Shown: positions 4,965-55,444 of the stretch, one piece after another
How positions within the stretch are numbered: position 1 is the first letter of the stretch
Layout of the letters: each line of letters opens with the position of its first letter
NCBI RefSeq assembly: GCF_056712565.1
Contig: NZ_CM160072.1
Length of the DNA: 64,000 nt
Direction: 5' to 3' (one strand)
The notes under the pieces: model-generated
Database searches by the model: none
What the model was told of the DNA's origin: nothing
The model's input: only the letters and a program-made list of their open reading frames with translations
Program-made: the position numbers and the translations under genes

Positions 4965-5154
4965 AGATACAACAAAGCCGGGAATTACCCGGCTTTGTTA
5001 TGGAATAAGGCGGTGCCTAACTCGACGTTTCGCCCGATGGTTGATATAGCTACGCTGATATCAGAAGTTGGACGGCAGGCACCTTGTTGTGCGTCATTCG
5101 AATTTTATGTAGCACCTCCCGAAGGGGCTGACATAAGTCGGTGAATGAGCCACT
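4965..5154 (-). ncRNA. glmY: GlmY small RNA
   Basis: Minus-strand sequence AGTGGCTCATTCACCGACTTATGTCAGCCCCTTCGGGAGG…AAAGCCGGGTAATTCCCGGCTTTGTTGTATCT matches GlmY as recalled, including the terminator hairpin. Confidence 0.8.
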
Positions 5155-14031: not shown

Positions 14032-14393
14032 TCGTTTTTCCTTAAACAAGGAATGCAGCCGTTCAGATTAGCCCTTACATCTCCCCAAAACTGAACGTGC
14101 GAGTTATTGGAATCGAGTGCTGCACTCCACACCAGAGCTTTGACGACACCACTCGTTTCAATGGGGGAATTCAGTGGCATGGTGTAAAGCACAGCAAAAT
14201 TGCCAATAACGAAACCGATTTTAATGTACTTATCAAAAAGCGGTCACGTTAATCTTTTCATCAATGTCGATTTCTTCGTAAAGGCTCGCGTTTTTTATGT
14301 CAGAGATTGCAAGTTGCTTGTACAGGTCAACGAAATTGATCCATAATCATTTTCGTTGGAATCGTGTGCTGCACAAAATTAAAGTTAAAAAGT

Positions 14394-14426
14394 AAAACCC
14401 CCGTTCCTTACCAGTTCGGGGGTTTT
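14394..14426. terminator. Hairpin terminator downstream of acpS
   Basis: aaaacccccg…cgggggtttt followed by a T-rich tract. Confidence 0.5.
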
Positions 14427-14451
14427 ACTTTATAAAGAGAACGGTATTATT

Positions 14452-16314: not shown

Positions 16315-17927
<1,613 letters not shown>

Positions 17928-18163
17928 TCAGCACACGAAACAGACCTGATATACATAGCTCTGCTAACTGCTTCGCTGCAGTTTAGCGGTATATGGGGAC
18001 CAACGCTGTTTCGTGTGCCGTGGCAACCTGGAGGTGCCAACCTTAAACTTCGGGGGAATATTCTATACACAACGACGGGGGATGTCGTTAGCCACGGGAG
18101 ATTTATCTCATAAATAATTCACGTTGTCGCCATAACGGCGACAACGTGAACGAAGATGGGCTA

Positions 18164-19153: not shown

Positions 19154-20953
19154 TTATTTGTTGTCTTTGCCGACGTGCAGAATGGCGAGGAACGCTTCCT
19201 GCGGCAGCTCGACGTTACCGATCTGCTTCATGCGTTTCTTACCTTCTTTCTGCTTCTGCAGCAGCTTTTTCTTACGACTGATATCGCCGCCATAACATTT
19301 AGCCAGTACGTTTTTACGCAGCTGTTTCACGGTGGAGCGCGCAATGATGTGCGTACCAATCGCTGCCTGAATGGCGATATCAAACTGCTGGCGCGGGATC
19401 AGATCTTTCATCTTCTCCACCAGCTCGCGACCGCGGTTTTGCGAATTACCACGATGGGTGATCAGCGCCAACGCATCAACACGTTCACCGTTGATTAATA
19501 CGTCTACACGTACCATGTCGGACGCCTGGAAGCGTTTGAAGTTGTAATCCAGAGACGCATAACCACGCGAGGTAGATTTCAGGCGATCGAAGAAATCGAG
19601 CACCACTTCCGCCATCGGGATCTCGTACGTCAGCGCCACCTGATTACCGTGGTAAACCATATTGGTCTGCACGCCGCGTTTTTCTACGCACAGCGTAATA
19701 ACGTTGCCGAGATATGCCTGCGGCAGCAGCATGTGACATTCTGCAATCGGCTCGCGCAGTTCGTAGATGTTATTTACCGCTGGCAGCTTGGATGGGCTGT
19801 CGACGTAGATAACTTCTCTTGACGTGGTTTCAACTTCATACACTACGGTCGGCGCAGTGGTGATCAGATCCAGATCGTATTCACGTTCCAGACGTTCCTG
19901 GATGATCTCCATGTGCAGCAGACCGAGGAAGCCGCAGCGGAAACCAAAGCCCAGCGCGCTTGAGCTTTCCGGCTCATAGAACAGTGAGGCATCGTTCAGG
20001 CTGAGTTTACCCAGCGCGTCACGGAAGGCTTCATAGTCGTCGGAACTTACCGGGAACAGACCGGCGTATACCTGCGGTTTGACTTTCTTAAAGCCAGGCA
20101 GCGCCTTTTCTGCCGGATTACGCGCCAGCGTTAAGGTATCGCCTACTGGAGCGCCGTGGATATCTTTAATCGCACATACCAGCCAGCCTACTTCGCCACA
20201 TTTCAGTTCAGTGCGGTCAACCTGTTTTGGCGTAAAAATACCCAGACGGTCGGCGTTATAGGTCTGCCCGGTACTCATGACTTTCACTTTGTCGCCCTTA
20301 CGCAGGGTGCCGTTTTTAATACGGATAAGTGAAACAACGCCCAGGTAGTTGTCGAACCAGGAGTCGATAATGAGTGCCTGTAACGGGCCTTCCGGATCGC
20401 CTTCCGGCGGCGGAATGTCGCGCACCAGACGTTCGAGAACGTCCTGCACGCCAACGCCGGTTTTCGCTGAACAGCGCACCGCGTCAGTGGCGTCGATGCC
20501 GACGATATCTTCAATTTCTTCCGCCACGCGTTCAGGATCAGCTGCCGGCAGGTCAATCTTGTTCAGTACCGGCACCACTTCGAGATCCATTTCCATGGCG
20601 GTGTAGCAGTTTGCCAGGGTTTGCGCTTCTACGCCCTGCCCGGCGTCGACCACCAGCAATGCACCTTCACATGCAGCCAGCGAACGAGAAACTTCATAGG
20701 AGAAGTCTACGTGGCCCGGGGTGTCGATAAAGTTAAGCTGATAGGTTTCGCCGTCAGACGCTTTGTAGTCCAGCGTCACGCTTTGCGCTTTGATGGTAAT
20801 GCCACGCTCACGCTCAAGATCCATGGAATCGAGAACCTGCGCCTCCATTTCACGGTCAGACAGGCCACCGCAGATCTGGATAATACGGTCAGACAGCGTC
20901 GATTTACCGTGGTCAATGTGAGCTATGATCGAAAAGTTACGTATATTCTTCAT
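19154..20953 (-). CDS. lepA: Elongation factor 4 (LepA)
   Basis: 599-aa translational GTPase (AHIDHGKST). Confidence 0.95.
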
Positions 20954-21150
20954 AAAGTATGATTATTGTGCCTTAATGCCCGGTTAACCAGGCTTTTAGA
21001 AGTCGCTGTTCTGAGCTTAACGTCTGTATTAATAGAAACGCCGCATTCTACACTACAACATTGAGGCGAGGAAATGTTCATACCGTATGGATTGTGGTAT
21101 CTGGAAACGTCCTCGCATTTGTTATGCAAAATGCAACAAAGCCAGTGAAA

Positions 21151-21630
21151 TCACTGGCTCGCGTCTTCCGAAGATGTTTCAAATCGCACAAGGCCAGGCG
21201 GCAAGGCCACGCTTAAGATGATCGGTTGCCATTCTGCCCGGGCAGCAAACTTACGCGAGTAGCCGCGCGCAATCAGGAACCCGCCAAAACCGCCGAGGAT
21301 CGCACCACATAATGCTGCGACGTCAGAAGCAAAGAGTAGCTGAAATAGCGAAGCGATGAGGAATAATCCCACCAGCGGCGACATATAAACCAGTAATGCG
21401 GAGCTAAGCAGGCTGCCTTCGGCGATTCCTAATTCTACTTTTTGCCCCGGCACTAACGGCTCATCACAGGGTACGACAATGGTATGCGTGGTTTGCGGGC
21501 CAAGTTTATTCAACACGCGGCTACCGCAACCGGCGCGTGAAGCGCAGCTGCTGCATGAGGCTTTAACATCACAACTGACCAGCGCCTGCCCGTTTTGCCA
21601 GGAGACGACGGTAGCCCACTCTTTGATCAT
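21151..21630 (-). CDS. rseC: SoxR-reducing system protein RseC
   Basis: 159 aa; last gene of the rpoE-rseABC operon. Confidence 0.9.
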   Translation of the reverse strand: MIKEWATVVSWQNGQALVSCDVKASCSSCASRAGCGSRVLNKLGPQTTHTIVVPCDEPLVPGQKVELGIAEGSLLSSALLVYMSPLVGLFLIASLFQLLFASDVAALCGAILGGFGGFLIARGYSRKFAARAEWQPIILSVALPPGLVRFETSSEDASQ

Positions 21631-22583
21631 TGCGCTGCCCCGAACTTAATATTCTCGGCAATGCGTTTCGCCGTTTGCGGCGGCAGTTCACCGACAATGG
21701 TGATTTCGGCGTTATCACGTACGCTTGTACTGACGGTTCTGCGTCCGGTGCGCAACATCTGATCGCTGCTCGATGGCGTAGCGCGGTTAACGTTTACCGA
21801 GAAGCTGAATAATCCGTCGGAATAGAGACGTGATTCGATAGGCATGTTGTCCATCGTCGGTAGCGGACGTCGACTACTGGAAACTTCGCTAAAACCCTGT
21901 GGCAACCAGGTTGGCGTCCAGCTGAATTTAGCTTTTTCACCTACAGGAACAGAAAGCAACGGCGGCAAATTTGCCTTCGCCAGCGTCTGCATACTGCTGC
22001 TGATATCCTGATTGACGTTAAAAGCAATCACGCGAAATTGTTCCAGCGTTTCACCATCGCGATCAAGGAGATCAACCCGCATCGGTAATTTCGATTCGGT
22101 GTCCATCCACACAATGTAGCTGTAGCGTGTGCCATCACGGGCGACTACGCGAATGACTTCGCAAAGACGATCAGCAATACGCGTGCGTCCCACGGAGATA
22201 AAGTCGTAGTAAGGAGAAAGGCGTTTGAAATCGGTATAAATGAGCGATGGCAGAGAATCAACAATGTAATCGCCATTAAGCGTGAACGGTTCAAGGCCCG
22301 GCTCAAAGTAGCTGATTTCATTGCCGCGCTGTACCACTTCCCGGCGCGGGCCATCCATTTGCAACAGCTGTGCAAGCGGACGGTTATCGAGGCGTGCATG
22401 TCGATAACGCAGAGACTCAACACCCTGTTTATTGATGCTGATGAATGACAGCTCGTAATTCAGTGACTGACTGGCCAGGTTCATCTGCTGTAATAACGCC
22501 CCGGACGCGGGAGTGGCCGAGGCGTTAGCAGAGAATAACAGGCTACCTGTCACTAATGACATGGCAAACCAAAGTTGCTTCAT
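21627..22583 (-). CDS. rseB: Sigma-E regulatory protein RseB
   Basis: 318 aa with signal peptide. Confidence 0.9.
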   Translation of the reverse strand: MKQLWFAMSLVTGSLLFSANASATPASGALLQQMNLASQSLNYELSFISINKQGVESLRYRHARLDNRPLAQLLQMDGPRREVVQRGNEISYFEPGLEPFTLNGDYIVDSLPSLIYTDFKRLSPYYDFISVGRTRIADRLCEVIRVVARDGTRYSYIVWMDTESKLPMRVDLLDRDGETLEQFRVIAFNVNQDISSSMQTLAKANLPPLLSVPVGEKAKFSWTPTWLPQGFSEVSSSRRPLPTMDNMPIESRLYSDGLFSFSVNVNRATPSSSDQMLRTGRRTVSTSVRDNAEITIVGELPPQTAKRIAENIKFGAAQ

Positions 22584-28973: not shown

Positions 28974-29075
28974 AACCCCAAACCTATCGAAAATATCGAA
29001 TTTAGAATGTAAAAACATTCATTTTTTTAAATGTTCCGTGTCGGGTACTGTCTACCAAAACAGAGGAGATAACAA

Positions 29076-29663
29076 GTGACACCGACCCTTTTAAGTGCTT
29101 TTTGGACTTACACCCTGATTACCGCCATGACGCCAGGACCGAACAATATTCTCGCCCTTAGCTCTGCTACGTCGCATGGATTTCGTCAAAGTACCCGTGT
29201 GCTGGCAGGGATGAGTCTGGGATTTTTGATTGTGATGTTACTGTGTGCGGGCATTTCATTTTCACTGGCAGTGATTGACCCGGCAGCGGTACACCTTTTG
29301 AGTTGGGCGGGGGCGGCATATATTGTCTGGCTGGCGTGGAAAATCGCCACCAGCCCAACAAAGGAAGACGGACTTCAGACAAAACCAATCAGTTTTTGGG
29401 CCAGCTTTGCTTTGCAGTTTGTGAACGTCAAAATCATTTTGTACGGTGTTACGGCACTGTCGACGTTTGTTCTGCCGCAAACACAGGCGCTAAGTTGGGT
29501 AGTTGGCGTCAGCGTTTTGCTGGCGATGATTGGGACGTTTGGCAATGTGTGCTGGGCGCTGGCGGGGCATCTGTTTCAGCGATTGTTTCGCCAGTATGGT
29601 CGCCAGTTAAATATCGTGCTTGCCCTGTTGCTGGTCTATTGCGCGGTACGCATTTTCTATTAA
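29076..29663 (+). CDS. eamB: Cysteine/O-acetylserine exporter (LysE/RhtB family)
   Basis: 195-aa polytopic membrane protein. Confidence 0.85.
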   Translation: MTPTLLSAFWTYTLITAMTPGPNNILALSSATSHGFRQSTRVLAGMSLGFLIVMLLCAGISFSLAVIDPAAVHLLSWAGAAYIVWLAWKIATSPTKEDGLQTKPISFWASFALQFVNVKIILYGVTALSTFVLPQTQALSWVVGVSVLLAMIGTFGNVCWALAGHLFQRLFRQYGRQLNIVLALLLVYCAVRIFY

Positions 29664-29670
29664 CGAAAAA

Positions 29671-29698
29671 AAGCGGAAGAGGTCGCCCTCTTCCGCTT
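29671..29698. terminator. Bidirectional hairpin between eamB and grcA
   Basis: aagcggaagagg-tcgc-cctcttccgctt. Confidence 0.5.
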
Positions 29699-29718
29699 AG
29701 TAACTTGCTACTTAAGCC

Positions 29719-30102
29719 TTACAGGCTTTCAGTAAAGGTACGAGCGATAACGTCGCGCTGCTGTTCCGGAGTCAGAGAGTTAAAGCGAACTGCATAACCG
29801 GATACACGGATGGTCAGCTGCGGATATTTTTCCGGATGCTTAACTGCATCTTCCAGAGTTTCACGACGCAGAACGTTAACGTTCAGGTGTTGACCACCTT
29901 CAACGCGAACTTCTGGTTTCACTTCTACTGGAACTTCACGGTATTCAATGTCACCCAGTTTGCTTACTGCAACCACTTCGTCTTCTGCAAAACCTGCTTT
30001 CGCAACGATGCAACGCGCTTCGCCTTTTTCGCTGTCCAGCAACCAGAAAGAGTTCAGCAGATCGTCGTTAGCGGCTTTAGTAATCTGGATACCTGTAATC
30101 AT
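29719..30102 (-). CDS. grcA: Autonomous glycyl radical cofactor (YfiD)
   Basis: Start at [15 protein letters not shown]-terminal RVSGYAV glycyl-radical motif; 127 aa. Confidence 0.95.
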
Positions 30103-30209
30103 GTGATGCCTCCCCGGCAAAATTATTTGATTTGTTCAGCCTGTCGCGGCCAATTGGTAAAACCATTGTTGCTTGAGTGTATATATACTCCTCAAACACC
30201 CTTGATTCT

Positions 30210-30223
30210 TTGATTTAAATCAA
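30210..30223. promoter_or_regulatory. FNR-type site TTGAT-N4-ATCAA upstream of grcA
   Basis: Perfect ttgatttaaatcaa palindrome in the grcA upstream region. Confidence 0.55.
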
Positions 30224-30406
30224 CAAAAACCACATATCAAGTGTGGTCACAAATGGATTTTATTGTTTTACATCAACTTATGCAGATGTGAAATTTTACC
30301 AATTTACATTTTTTTGCATGTCTTTTTGTCTATAAAATGAGCATGATTTTGTTCTGTAGAAAGAAGCAGTTAAGCTAGGCGGATTAAAGATTCGCAGGAG
30401 AGCGAG

Positions 30407-31096
30407 ATGGCTAACGAATTAACCTGGCATGATGTGCTGGCTGAAGAGAAGCAGCAACCCTATTTTCTTAATACCCTTCAGACCGTCGCCAGCGAGCGGC
30501 AGTCCGGCGTCACTATCTATCCACCACAAAAAGATGTCTTTAACGCGTTCCGCTTTACGGAGTTGGGTGACGTTAAAGTGGTGATTCTCGGTCAGGATCC
30601 TTATCACGGACCAGGACAGGCGCATGGTCTGGCATTTTCCGTTCGCCCCGGCATTGCGACACCACCGTCACTGCTGAATATGTATAAAGAGCTGGAAAAT
30701 ACTATTCCCGGTTTCACCCGCCCTAATCATGGTTACCTTGAAAGCTGGGCGCGTCAGGGTGTTCTGCTGCTCAATACTGTCTTGACGGTTCGCGCTGGTC
30801 AGGCGCATTCCCACGCCAGCCTCGGCTGGGAGACGTTTACTGATAAAGTCATCAGCCTCATAAATCAGCATCGCGAAGGCGTGGTGTTTTTGTTGTGGGG
30901 ATCACATGCGCAAAAGAAAGGGGCGATTATAGATAAGCAACGCCATCATGTACTGAAAGCACCGCATCCGTCGCCGCTTTCGGCGCATCGTGGATTCTTT
31001 GGCTGCAACCATTTTGTGCTGGCAAATCAGTGGCTGGAACAACGTGGCGAGACGCCGATTGACTGGATGCCAGTATTACCGGCAGAGAGTGAGTAA
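30407..31096 (+). CDS. ung: Uracil-DNA glycosylase
   Basis: 229 aa with GQDPYH motif. Confidence 0.95.
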
Positions 31097-31143
31097 ATTT
31101 GCGGGAAAATGCCGGATGGCAGAGTTGCCACCCGGCTGATTTA

Positions 31144-32181
31144 TCAGGCTTTATTCTGACGCCACCATTCGCCAAGAAGAACGCCGGTTGCGACAGAGAT
31201 ATTCAGCCCGGCAACGTTGCCAGTACCATCAATCTTCACGCGCAGATCGTTCGGATCGCGTGCGGCATCCGGTAACCCTTCATATTCCTGACCCAGCACC
31301 AGTACCATTTTCGCTGGCAGACTGGTTTTGAACAGCGGTTTACCCTGCTCGCTGGAAGTTGTCACTACGGTGTAACCCGCCTGACGGAAATCATCCAGCA
31401 CGTTAACAATGTTGTCGCCAGTAATCGGCTGAACGTACTCTGCGCCGCCTTCTGCGGTACGGATAGCCGCCCCAGACTCCAGCAGTGCTGCATCCTGCAC
31501 CACAACACCTTTCACGCCGAAGTGCGCACAGCTACGCATCATGCCGCCCAGGTTATGCGGGTTAGATTCGTTTTCCAGGGCCAGTACACAATCCTGCGCG
31601 CCTGCCTGGCTTACCCACTGCTGCACGGTTGTACCGTTACGCTTTTTGATCAGGAAGCAAACGCCGCCGTGATGTTCCGTGCCTGACGCTTTTGTCAGTT
31701 CCGCTTCATCCACCACATGGTACGCTTTGCGGTTTGCCGCCATCCAGCGCAAGGCTTCTTTAAAACGTGGCGTTACGCTCTGGATAAACCAGGCGCGAAC
31801 AATCGCTTCCGGACGGCTCTGGAACAGTGCCTGACAGGCGTTTTCGCCGTAGACGCGGGTTTCTTCCGCACGCTGACGACGCAAAACTTCCGGATCAATA
31901 AAACTTTTACCACTGATGCCACCGTGATCGGCCTTTTCCGGCGTCTCATCACCCGGCGCGCGGGAAACCGTGCGCCACGGCGAATCTTCCCACTTGCGGT
32001 CACGGTGCTGACTCTGTTTGTCATCGCGGGCGGGGCGACGGCCACCGTCAGCACGAGATTTTCCTGGACGCCCGCCCCCTTTCCCGGTACGCGGGTTGTG
32101 GGTACGTTTATCAGAATCATCATCACTGCGGACATACATCACTTTGACCTTGCCGCTTTTACCTTTCATTTCATCGTTCAT
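31144..32181 (-). CDS. yfiF: SpoU/TrmH-family RNA methyltransferase with basic N-terminal region
   Basis: Start at [18 protein letters not shown] (345 aa). Confidence 0.85.
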
Positions 32182-32387
32182 GCTTTTCTCCACCAGCGCT
32201 GCGCGAAGCGCGCAGATTACCCGAAGTCCGCGCGGTTCGCCATGATTTCGTTCCAAAGCCTGTGTCTATCATACCCATTGAATAAAACAGATTGTTGTCT
32301 GGAACAATGTCCCCGATAATATGTAACATATTAGAAACATACCGGCGTCGTTGCCGATAAGTCTCCTTACTCATCCCGAGGTTAGTT

Positions 32388-42427: not shown

Positions 42428-42547
42428 ATGCCTGGCAGTTCCCTACTCTCGCATGGGGAGACCCCACACTACCATCGGCGCTACGGCGTTTCACTTCTGA
42501 GTTCGGCATGGGGTCAGGTGGGACCACCGCGCTAAGGCCGCCAGGCA
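42428..42547 (-). rRNA. rrf: 5S ribosomal RNA
   Basis: Reverse complement matches E. coli 5S rRNA (TGCCTGGCGGCC…GGGAACTGCCAGGCAT). Confidence 0.95.
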
Positions 42548-42640
42548 AATTCTGTTTCATTAACCCGCTTGTCGCCGGTTAATCTAATCTGTATCAGGCT
42601 GAAAATCTTCTCTCATCCGCCAAAACATCTTCGGCGTTGT

Positions 42641-45544
<2,904 letters not shown>

Positions 45545-45737
45545 TCACAACCCGAAGATGTTTCTTGCGATTCATCATCGTGTTGCGAAAATTTGAGAGA
45601 CTCACGAACAACTCTCGTTGTTCAGTGTTTCAATTTTCAGCTTGATCCAGATTTTTAAAGAGCAAATATCTCAAACATCACCCGAAGATGAGTTTTGAGA
45701 TATTAAGGCAGGTGACTTTCACTCACAAACCAGCAAG

Positions 45738-45813
45738 TGGCGTCCCCTAGGGGATTCGAACCCCTGTTACCGCCGTGAAAGGGCGGTGTCCTGGGCCTCT
45801 AGACGAAGGGGAC
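45738..45813 (-). tRNA. gltW: tRNA-Glu (UUC) in the 16S-23S spacer
   Basis: Reverse complement reads GTCCCCTTCGTCTAGAGGCCCAGGACACCGCCCTTTCACGGCGGTAACAGGGGTTCGAATCCCCTAGGGGACGCCA. Confidence 0.95.
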
Positions 45814-45898
45814 GTATCAGTCTGCTTCGCAAGACGCCTTGCTTTTCACTTTCTATCAGACAATCTGTGTGAGCACTGCAAAGTACGCTTCTTTAAGG

Positions 45899-47440
<1,542 letters not shown>

Positions 47441-47881: not shown

Positions 47882-50455
47882 TTACTGGACGGCGACGATC
47901 CGGTCTTCATTAACTTCCAGGCGAATAACTTTACCCGGAACCAATTCACCAGACAGTATTTGCTGTGCCAGCGGGTTTTCGATCTGCTGCTGGATAGCAC
48001 GCTTCAGAGGACGTGCACCATAGACCGGATCGTAACCGTTCTCGCTCAGCAGTTTCAGCACCTCGTCAGAAATGTGGATTTCATAACCACGTTCTTCCAG
48101 ACGTTTGTACAGACGTTTCAACTGAATCTGCGCAATCGACGCAATGTGTTGTTCACCCAGCGGATGGAAGACGACGACTTCATCGATACGGTTAATGAAT
48201 TCCGGACGGAAGTTATGGCTTACCACACCGAGCACCAGCTCTTTCATGTGCGCATAATCCAGTTCACCAAAACGTTCCTGAATCAGATCAGAACCGAGGT
48301 TAGAGGTCATAATGACGACCGTATTACGGAAGTCGACCGTTCTCCCCTGCCCGTCAGTCAGACGCCCATCATCCAGTACCTGCAACAGAATGTTGAAGAC
48401 ATCCGGATGCGCTTTTTCCACTTCATCCAGCAGGATGACGGAATACGGACGACGACGCACCGCTTCGGTCAGATAGCCACCTTCTTCATAACCAACATAT
48501 CCCGGAGGCGCACCAACCAGACGAGACACCGAGTGTTTCTCCATAAACTCGGACATATCAATACGGACCATCGCCTCGTCGCTATCAAACATAAAGTTCG
48601 CCAGCGCCTTACAAAGCTCTGTTTTCCCCACACCCGTTGGGCCGAGGAACAGGAATGAACCAATCGGGCGATTTGGATCCGCCAGCCCCGCACGGCTACG
48701 ACGAATAGCGTTAGATACCGCATCAACCGCTTCGTTCTGACCAATAACGCGATGATGCAGTTCTTGCTCCATACGCAGCAGTTTTTCGCGCTCGCTTTCC
48801 ATCATGCGAGAAACCGGAATTCCCGTCCAACGCGCCAGCACTTCAGCAATTTCGGCATCGGTCACTTTATTACGCAACAGACGCATAGTTTTGCCTTCGA
48901 GCTGCGTTGCGGCTTCCAGTTGCTTTTCCAGTTCCGGGATTTTGCCGTATTGCAGTTCAGACATCCGCGCCAGGTCACCCACACGGCGAGCCTGTTCAAT
49001 AGCGATTTTCGCCTGTTCCAGTTCCGCTTTAATGGTCTGCGTACCAGAAAGCGAGGCTTTCTCTGCTTTCCACTCTTCTTCTAACTCGGAGTACTGACGT
49101 TCTTTGTCGCTCAGTTCTTCGTTGAGCATATCCAGGCGTTTTTTACTGGCTTCATCAGACTCTTTCATTAACGCCTGTTGTTCCAGTTTGAGCTGGATGA
49201 TACGACGATCGAGTCGGTCGAGTTCTTCTGGTTTTGAGTCAATCTGCATACGAATGCTGGATGCTGCTTCATCGATCAGGTCGATGGCTTTATCCGGCAG
49301 CTGACGGTCAGCAATGTAGCGATGAGACAACGTCGCCGCTGCAACAATTGCCGGGTCAGTAATTTGCACATGGTGGTGCAGCTCGTAACGTTCTTTCAGG
49401 CCACGCAGAATCGCAATGGTATCTTCAACAGAAGGCTCGGCAACAAACACTTTCTGGAAACGACGTTCCAGCGCAGCATCTTTTTCGATGTACTGGCGAT
49501 ATTCGTCAAGCGTCGTGGCACCTACGCAGTGCAATTCACCACGCGCCAGCGCCGGTTTCAGCATGTTTCCGGCGTCCATTGCGCCATCGGCTTTACCCGC
49601 GCCGACCATGGTATGTAATTCGTCGATAAACAGGATGACGTTGCCTTCCTGTTTGGCAAGATCGTTAAGTACGCCTTTTAAACGTTCTTCAAACTCACCG
49701 CGATATTTCGCCCCAGCCACCAGCGCGCCCATATCCAGCGCCAGTACGCGGCGGCCTTTCAACCCTTCGGGCACTTCGCCGTTGATAATACGCTGCGCCA
49801 GACCTTCAACGATGGCAGTCTTACCGACGCCTGGTTCACCAATCAGTACCGGGTTATTTTTAGTACGACGTTGCAGCACCTGAATGGTACGGCGAATTTC
49901 TTCATCACGACCAATCACCGGATCGAGTTTACCCTGTTCGGCTCGTTCGGTAAGGTCGATGGTATATTTTTTCAAAGCCTGACGTTGGTCTTCAGCACCT
50001 TGATCGTTCACGCTTTCACCTCCACGCATTTGTTCAATCGCTTGAGTAATGTTGGCGGTGGTCGCCCCTGCTGCTTTCAGGATGTCGGCCAGCGTGCCGC
50101 GAGACTCAAGTGCCGCCAGAACGAACAGTTCTGACGAGATAAAGTTATCACCACGTTTTTGCGCCAGCTTGTCGCAAAGATTAAGAACGCGCACCAGATC
50201 CTGTGATGGCTGGACATCACCACCAGTACCTTCAACCTGCGGTAAACGATTTAATGCCTGATTGATATCTGTGCGCAACTGGCCAGCATTTATGCCAGCG
50301 GATGTTAATAAAGGACTAACCGAACCCCCTTCCTGATTCAGCAGGGCGCTCATTAAATGAAGTGGTTCGATGAATTGGTTGTCGTGCCCGAGTGCAAGTG
50401 ATTGGGCATCGGCAAGAGCAAGCTGGAATTTATTAGTAAGACGATCCAGACGCAT
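47882..50455 (-). CDS. clpB: Chaperone/disaggregase ClpB
   Basis: Start at [18 protein letters not shown] (857 aa); two AAA+ modules. Confidence 0.95.
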
Positions 50456-50489
50456 AACTCCTCCCATAACGGATCAAAGTTGCTACTGG

Positions 50490-50525
50490 AGATTAAATGA
50501 GGTCATCCCTCAATTATTCAAGGTT
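50490..50525 (-). promoter_or_regulatory. Sigma-32 heat-shock promoter of clpB (approximate)
   Basis: Minus strand CTTGAAtaattgagggatgacCTCATTTAat resembles the sigma-32 consensus CTTGAAA…CCCCATnT. Confidence 0.5.
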
Positions 50526-50584
50526 ATTGACCAGATTAATGTGAAAAGAAAATCACGCGTACCGGATCGTCTTGATTCTTTAGG

Positions 50585-55264: not shown

Positions 55265-55318
55265 TGACAGCGTGAAAACAGTACGGGTACTGTACTAAAG
55301 TCACTTAAGGAAACAAAC

Positions 55319-55366
55319 ATGAAACACACACCGTTTTTCTTCGCATTCTTTTTTACCTTCCCCTGA
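55319..55366 (+). CDS. pheL: pheA leader peptide (Phe-rich attenuation peptide)
   Basis: atg…tga encodes MKHTPFFFAFFFTFP*, seven Phe in 15 aa. Confidence 0.85.
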   Translation: MKHTPFFFAFFFTFP

Positions 55367-55414
55367 ATGGGAGGCGTTTCGTCGTGTGAAACAGAATGCG
55401 AAGACGAACAATAA

Positions 55415-55444
55415 GGCCTCCCAAATCGGGGGGCCTTTTTTATT
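55415..55444 (+). terminator. pheA attenuator terminator
   Basis: aggcctccc-aaatc-ggggggcct followed by ttttttt, between pheL and pheA. Confidence 0.7.

Follow-up and report, generated by a model that had tools for sequence, protein, structure and literature searches.

The perfect FNR palindrome upstream of grcA (yfiD) in Escherichia coli and its upstream partner

The spacer between the divergent genes grcA and ung carries a perfect match to the FNR consensus, TTGAT-N4-ATCAA. Such a position raises the question of which of the two genes the site serves, and whether it acts alone. The sequences, the coordinates, the exact correspondences with K-12 sites and peaks and the conservation reported below come from the present analysis; FNR occupancy, FNR dependence, the transcription start and the effect of removing the second site come from the K-12 literature.

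The grcA–ung spacer and its perfect palindrome

The window, the whole 64,000-nucleotide stretch of DNA that was analysed, is from E. coli. In a genome comparison, a 721-bp stretch around the site was 100% identical to the sequence of E. coli ATCC 11775 and of several other strains, and was matched with at least 80% coverage in 5,425 of 5,426 complete E. coli genomes. The RefSeq annotation at the matched stretch gives grcA and ung, and the layout around the spacer is as follows.

29719–30102, minus strand: grcA (yfiD) coding sequence (open reading frame and RefSeq), 127 amino acids, autonomous glycyl-radical cofactor, the regulated gene; annotated ATG at 30102
30407–31096, plus strand: ung open reading frame (open reading frame list and RefSeq annotation)
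29671–29698, minus strand: intrinsic-terminator-like hairpin and T-run just past the grcA stop (12-pair stem with 7 G-C pairs, then TTTTTCGTTA)

The hairpin is terminator-like and may mark the end of a single-gene grcA unit. The divergent spacer measures 304 bp with 36% GC, and is also 304 bp long in K-12 MG1655 (NC_000913.3), where grcA occupies 2,716,066–2,716,449 and ung starts at 2,716,754. No indel separates the two spacers, and both FNR 14-mers described below are unchanged. The K-12 SNPs are found at 30224 and 30206, flanking the palindrome, at three positions between the FNR sites, and elsewhere toward ung. Other Rfam matches at the gathering score in the window were GlmY (5007–5154), ohsC (14355–14431), rncO (17843–18051), AsrC (20835–21666), an rRNA operon with 5S, 23S, tRNA and 16S (42430–47440), RyfD (50436–50574) and the Phe leader (55318–55443), all of them expected for this region of the E. 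coli chromosome.

30210–30223, centre 30216.5: FNR I, perfect TTGAT-N4-ATCAA, class II activator site, TTGATTTAAATCAA, at −40.5 from the grcA start
30263–30276, centre 30269.5: FNR II, one mismatch, expression-lowering site, TTGTTTTACATCAA (minus strand TTGATGTAAAACAA), at −93.5

The sequence ttgatttaaatcaa was read at exactly 30210–30223, and a pattern search returned this position as the sole perfect TTGATNNNNATCAA in the window. The site matches the consensus at 10 of 10 specified positions. Dinucleotide shuffles of the window contained a mean of 0.08 perfect matches, with at least one match in 8 of 100 shuffles; taken alone, the uniqueness of the match was only modestly unlikely by chance. 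The centre of FNR I lies 114.5 bp from the A of the grcA ATG. The original prediction had announced a perfect palindrome here, about 110 bp upstream of the start codon, and both the motif and the distance were borne out.

Adding 2,684,369 to a window coordinate converts it to the older K-12 numbering of Myers et al. (2013, PMC3688515), an offset that was adopted because the sequences and the 53-bp offset between the two sites match Table S6 of that work exactly. The table places TTGATTTAAATCAA at 2,714,579 (window 30210) with a PatSer score of 17.25, the highest among the matches listed from it (narK and nirB have 17.06), and flags both FNR I and FNR II as lying under an FNR ChIP-seq peak. The peak centre is given as 2,714,605 in Table 1 and 2,714,607 in Table S5, corresponding to window positions 30236–30238. 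Once mapped from K-12 it fell between the two FNR sites, so that the ChIP comparison agreed with the predicted role. Three ChIP-seq algorithms and ChIP-chip detected the yfiD peak (PMC3688515), as did an earlier ChIP-chip study, that of Grainger et al. (2007), who list it at yfiD/ung. Table 1 of Myers et al. puts the top-scoring site at −40.5 and describes yfiD as directly FNR-activated, with higher anaerobic expression. The gene is a Category 1 operon and is "Activated" in Table S8; its wild-type aerobic-versus-anaerobic value in Table S12 is 0.11, taken here as aerobic/anaerobic. Both FNR sites also overlap IHF ChIP-chip enrichment (PMC3688515).

Conservation was followed in a set of one genome per species, which supplied 80 grcA loci of Enterobacterales and Pasteurellaceae. 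In 77 of the 80 species, the 250 bp upstream of grcA contained a site with no more than one mismatch, compared with a background, in the rest of the same loci, of 7 such sites in 190 kb (0.037 per kb). Because 77 of 80 species keep the site, the palindrome is, to judge from the comparison of sequences, more than chance. The spacing of paired sites was 53 bp for 55 pairs and 52 bp for 6 (61 in total). A profile over 39 other Enterobacteriaceae species showed five conserved islands: FNR II, FNR I, the −10 element, a block at approximately 30146–30169, and the Shine-Dalgarno sequence. Among seven E. coli strains (93–100% identity in the promoter core), FNR I, FNR II and the −10 element were invariant and the leader was mostly unchanged, including a PdhR-type box; SNPs and one 1-bp insertion were found mainly in the spacers.

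Taking these data together with those on the promoter and on the second site, we put at roughly 95% the probability that the palindrome at 30210–30223 is the published FNR I class II activator site of the sigma-70-dependent grcA (yfiD) promoter and that the two-site model holds as a whole.

The Pasteurellaceae loci (L043–L066 and L073) were without the 53-bp pair upstream of grcA, at locus positions of approximately 1060–1120. Several of them (L045, L048, L055, L060 and L066) showed two FNR-like sites 42–44 bp apart, the perfect site usually being the upstream one of the two. This looks like a rearranged tandem FNR architecture.

The grcA promoter, its leader and FNR II

The features between the palindrome and the start codon are as follows.

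30176, minus strand: published grcA (yfiD) transcription start, transferred from K-12 position 2,714,545
30182–30187, minus strand: −10 hexamer TATATA, a conserved block beginning 22 nt past the end of FNR I
30103–30176, minus strand: 5' leader of the grcA mRNA, 74 nt, deduced from the positions of the start (30176) and the ATG (30102)
30109–30115, minus strand: Shine-Dalgarno sequence GGGGAGG, within the leader
30155–30186, plus strand: ArcA binding site with three direct repeats, −10 to +22 (Park et al. 2013)
30150–30169: putative PdhR-type operator, ACAATGGTTTTACCAATTGG on the minus strand, approximately +8 to +27, proposed from conservation and operator likeness

The start was back-calculated from two independent secondary sources, both reporting K-12 data. 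Since Myers et al. (2013) place the site at −40.5, transcription begins at 2,714,545, which is window position 30176; Park et al. (2013, PMC3798270) give the ArcA site at 2,714,524–2,714,555 as −10/+22, which therefore leads to the same start. The centre of a sigma-70 ChIP-seq peak lies at 2,714,546, or window 30177 (PMC3688515). The published start thus gives the palindrome a canonical class II position rather than a non-functional distance, and the predicted role stands. On the RNA-like strand, position 30176 carries a T, an unusual first base for a transcript, and for this reason the true start could be 1–2 nt away. The sigma-70 signal at the peak is 323 aerobically versus 224 in Table S2 of Myers et al. 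and is marked as higher anaerobically in Table 1, which is inconsistent (PMC3688515). Neither this discrepancy, nor the T at the start, nor the disagreement on the sign of ArcA regulation described below changes the classification of the site.

In every one of the 59 loci measured that have a site pair with 52- or 53-bp spacing, a TATAnA hexamer pointing toward grcA was found at this 22-nt distance. In most genera it is preceded by TGn, the extended −10 motif; E. coli has AG there (window 30188–30190), and E. coli, E. albertii and some Citrobacter show AG or GG where the other genera carry TGn. It is possible that the E. coli grcA promoter, having no extended −10, is more FNR-dependent. A scan for consensus sigma-70 promoters between 29600 and 30500 found none. 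This negative result is uninformative because the rule asks for both a −35 match and a T as the sixth base of the −10, neither of which a class II promoter with TATATA offers. In E. coli strain 214-4 a 1-bp insertion (an extra G) was observed at approximately 30195–30203, between FNR I and the −10 element; it would shift FNR I from −40.5 to the canonical −41.5. In the leader, Rfam gave no match at E ≤ 1 within 29000–31500 and none at the gathering score inside the region, and thus no known RNA element explains its conservation.

Allowing one mismatch in the search added TTGTTTTACATCAA, located 53 bp farther from grcA than FNR I, a site that the original prediction had omitted. Its centre at 30269.5 lies 93.5 bp upstream of the start at 30176. 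The same sequence is listed in Table S6 of Myers et al. at 2,714,632 (window 30263) with a PatSer score of 13.87 (PMC3688515), and the titles of the primary papers, as cited by later ones, state that an FNR site at −93.5 downregulates yfiD. Boecker et al. (2023, PMC10208419) provide the link between this effect and the sequence. Their oligonucleotide m097 turns TTGATGTAAAACAA into TTTATGTAAAAAAA to make the promoter yfiD-m, mutating the G and the C of an FNR II motif that coincides exactly with window 30263–30276; because the oligonucleotide sequences fix the identity of the site, the motif mutated in yfiD-m is FNR II of the window. Oligonucleotides m098 and m099 produce the 78-bp yfiD-P1, corresponding to window 30236–30159, without FNR II. 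Both yfiD-m and yfiD-P1 show an anaerobic output far above that of the wild type, and the wild-type yfiD promoter is more active microaerobically than under full anaerobiosis (PMC10208419, citing Marshall 2001). The second FNR site is the published FNR II, at 30263–30276 and −93.5. The anaerobic, FNR-dependent induction of grcA that had been predicted stands as far as activation by FNR is concerned, on published ChIP and expression data; it does not stand as plain anaerobic induction, the published regulation peaking microaerobically.

A hairpin resembling a terminator (CCACA...TGTGG and then a T-run) occupies minus-strand positions 30228–30248, between the two FNR sites and ahead of the grcA start. 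All seven E. coli strains retain the stem, K-12 with a single G-U wobble, and the loop varies; across genera, the conservation profile showed no conservation of this hairpin.

The most conserved part of the intergenic region was the block ACAATGGTTTTACCAATTGGCCG, at approximately 30146–30169, which was near-invariant in the 39 other Enterobacteriaceae species and overlaps the published ArcA repeats. Papers citing Wyborn 2002 state that PdhR directly represses yfiD and that pyruvate relieves the repression. When an operator of the type AATTGGT-N3-ACCAATT was sought at the promoter and in the early leader, ACAATGGTTTTACCAATTGG was found at 30150–30169; it shares a TGGT-N3-ACCAATT core with AATTGGTCTTACCAATT, the pdhR operator used in gel shifts by Göhler et al. 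(2011). We infer that the conserved box at 30150–30169 is the PdhR site of grcA. The ArcA site was located directly, as TGGTAAAACCATTGTTGCTTGAGTGTATATAT, reported by Park et al. (2013, PMC3798270) at 2,714,524–2,714,555 under ArcA ChIP peaks at 2,714,537 and 2,714,570, is present in the window. The sign of the ArcA effect on yfiD differs between sources: it is a repressor in Park et al. (2013, PMC3798270), who cite Wyborn 2002 for activation.

The ung side and other FNR-like sequences

The palindrome had also been said to lie in the ung upstream region. As a matter of position this holds, both FNR sites being within the shared 304-bp spacer, and the ChIP papers label the peak "yfiD/ung". It is conceivable that the FNR sites also, or instead, control ung and link uracil excision repair to oxygen. 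The divergent order is found in 78 of the 80 species, but since ung is the divergent neighbour in so many of them, synteny cannot separate the two genes; the assignment of the sites was judged instead by the variance of their distances and by the fixed distance to the −10 element. In the 59 measurable paired loci, the distance from the site to the grcA ATG had a standard deviation of 11.6 bp, against 29.1 bp for the far more variable distance to the ung ATG, and the 22 nt to the −10 element pointing toward grcA are fixed. As for regulation, ung (b2580) is absent from the differential-expression tables of Myers et al., and in fact appears in none of the supplementary tables, including the lists of FNR- and O2-dependent expression (PMC3688515). 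On the plus strand upstream of ung, the conserved blocks were ATTTTG (30346–30351) and GAAGCAGTTAAGCTA, which contains TAAGCT (30371–30376). The ung core promoter is probably TTGTTC-16-TAAGCT at 30349–30376. With such a promoter the FNR sites would lie more than 110 bp upstream of the putative ung start, FNR II near −114 and FNR I near −167, which are not usual activating or repressing positions. Control of ung by these sites is therefore improbable, and nothing in the evidence ties them to its regulation. We give equally little credence to the idea that the tandem sites act both ways, also tuning ung so that uracil-DNA repair follows the oxygen supply. If this were true, the divergent pairing in 78 of 80 species would fit a coupling of grcA and ung; it had no other support.

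The original prediction placed a second half-site, TTGAT, at about 30127. The pentamer does exist, at 30127–30131, and shows weak to moderate conservation in Enterobacteriaceae. As a functional half-site cooperating with the palindrome it is nevertheless very improbable, even more so than a role in ung control. It lacks a partner half-site in both registers in which a 14-mer could include it, with 5 and 7 mismatches over 10 positions, and it occupies +46 to +50, within the transcribed grcA leader. The pentamer is also frequent, with 183 occurrences in the window (approximately one per 350 bp) and six in the AT-rich grcA–ung spacer, and for this region Table S6 of Myers et al. lists the sites at 30210 and 30263 only (PMC3688515). 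The second FNR site is thus the one at 30263–30276. Two other orphan pentamers were rejected as FNR elements, both without a partner half-site: TTGAT at 30202, which reads TTGAA in K-12, and TTGAT at 30236, which is TCGAT in 5 of 6 other E. coli strains.

TTGAT is the half-site form of FNR, and sites of its paralogue CRP have a GTGA core. That the palindrome arose by chance in an AT-rich spacer, or is a CRP rather than an FNR site, has the slimmest probability of all: shuffled windows do yield perfect matches at the rate given above and CRP and FNR sites are related, but both half-sites are TTGAT without the GTGA core, and this reading is ruled out by the retention of the site in 77 of 80 species over the low background together with the published FNR ChIP-seq, ChIP-chip and FNR-dependent expression, which contradict it.

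FNR-like sequences were also observed elsewhere in the window. The yfiF/trxC spacer, at approximately 32200–32340, corresponds to a second published K-12 FNR ChIP peak, at 2,716,583 (approximately window 32214; PMC3688515), and to an ArcA peak with a predicted site at 2,716,648–2,716,706 (approximately window 32279–32337; PMC3798270). The best FNR-like matches near yfiF/trxC, at 32107 and 32242, had 2–3 mismatches. At 22432–22445, TTGATGCTGATGAA has one mismatch to the FNR consensus, and the same 14-mer is given by Myers et al. (PMC3688515) as "within rseB", a predicted site without a ChIP-seq peak. At this position the coordinate offset used for grcA misses by 176 bp, indicating an indel between K-12 and the window somewhere between this site and grcA.

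Proposed mechanism and relation to known systems

We propose the following scheme for grcA, with FNR I as the activating site and FNR II as its damping partner. At low oxygen, dimeric [4Fe-4S] FNR would bind FNR I at −40.5 and activate sigma-70 RNA polymerase in the class II manner; the −10 of the promoter (TATATA) is weak and a usable −35 is lacking. Transcription would then run from 30176 on the minus strand through the 74-nt leader into grcA. FNR II, 53 bp upstream, is about five helical turns away and would thus lie on the same face of the DNA as FNR I. Under full anaerobiosis, with abundant active FNR, FNR II would also be filled and expression lowered. The output would therefore be highest in microaerobiosis, the condition in which pyruvate formate-lyase suffers oxygen damage and requires GrcA as a spare part. 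PdhR, which pyruvate releases, and ArcA would add metabolic and redox inputs by binding over the start and early leader (30150–30186).

The perfect site at −40.5 is said to fill first, and the weaker one at −93.5 only when active FNR is abundant; FNR bound upstream reportedly interferes through its AR1 face. Such an affinity hierarchy would account for the microaerobic peak.

The reading made from the sequence only had picked out a real regulatory element. FNR I is among the best-characterised FNR targets, having been footprinted, mutated, detected by ChIP-chip and ChIP-seq, and taken up in metabolic engineering as an oxygen-responsive part. What changes is the arrangement around the promoter: the second site lies upstream, at −93.5, instead of in the leader, expression peaks at intermediate oxygen, and the ArcA and putative PdhR elements lie over the start.

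FNR I and FNR II of grcA are already known biology and not a discovery. The locus is that of the K-12 yfiD promoter (Green, Baldwin & Richardson 1998; Marshall et al. 2001; Wyborn et al. 2002). Both 14-mers, the −10 element, the leader and the region of the PdhR-type and ArcA elements are identical to K-12 base for base, and the two sequences differ by strain-level SNPs outside the elements.

The grcA promoter resembles the class II FNR promoters of narG, nirB, dmsA, pykA and focA-pflB in being sigma-70-dependent and in having a site near −41.5 that replaces the −35. In Myers et al. (PMC3688515), the start is known for 23 directly activated promoters, and in 19 of these the site falls at −41.5 ± 4 nt. 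It differs from the canonical class II promoters in the position of its centre (−40.5), its perfect consensus and its PatSer score, the top one among the matches listed, and also in having a paired upstream damping site and a microaerobic rather than an anaerobic peak. In layout it resembles cydA and ompW, which like grcA have two FNR sites separated by whole helical turns (52 bp and 45 bp apart, respectively) under one ChIP peak. Operons like cydAB, as grcA, show their highest expression at intermediate oxygen (PMC3688515). However, cydA and ompW are directly FNR-repressed in Myers et al. (PMC3688515), whereas in grcA activation comes from the downstream site and damping from the upstream one alone.
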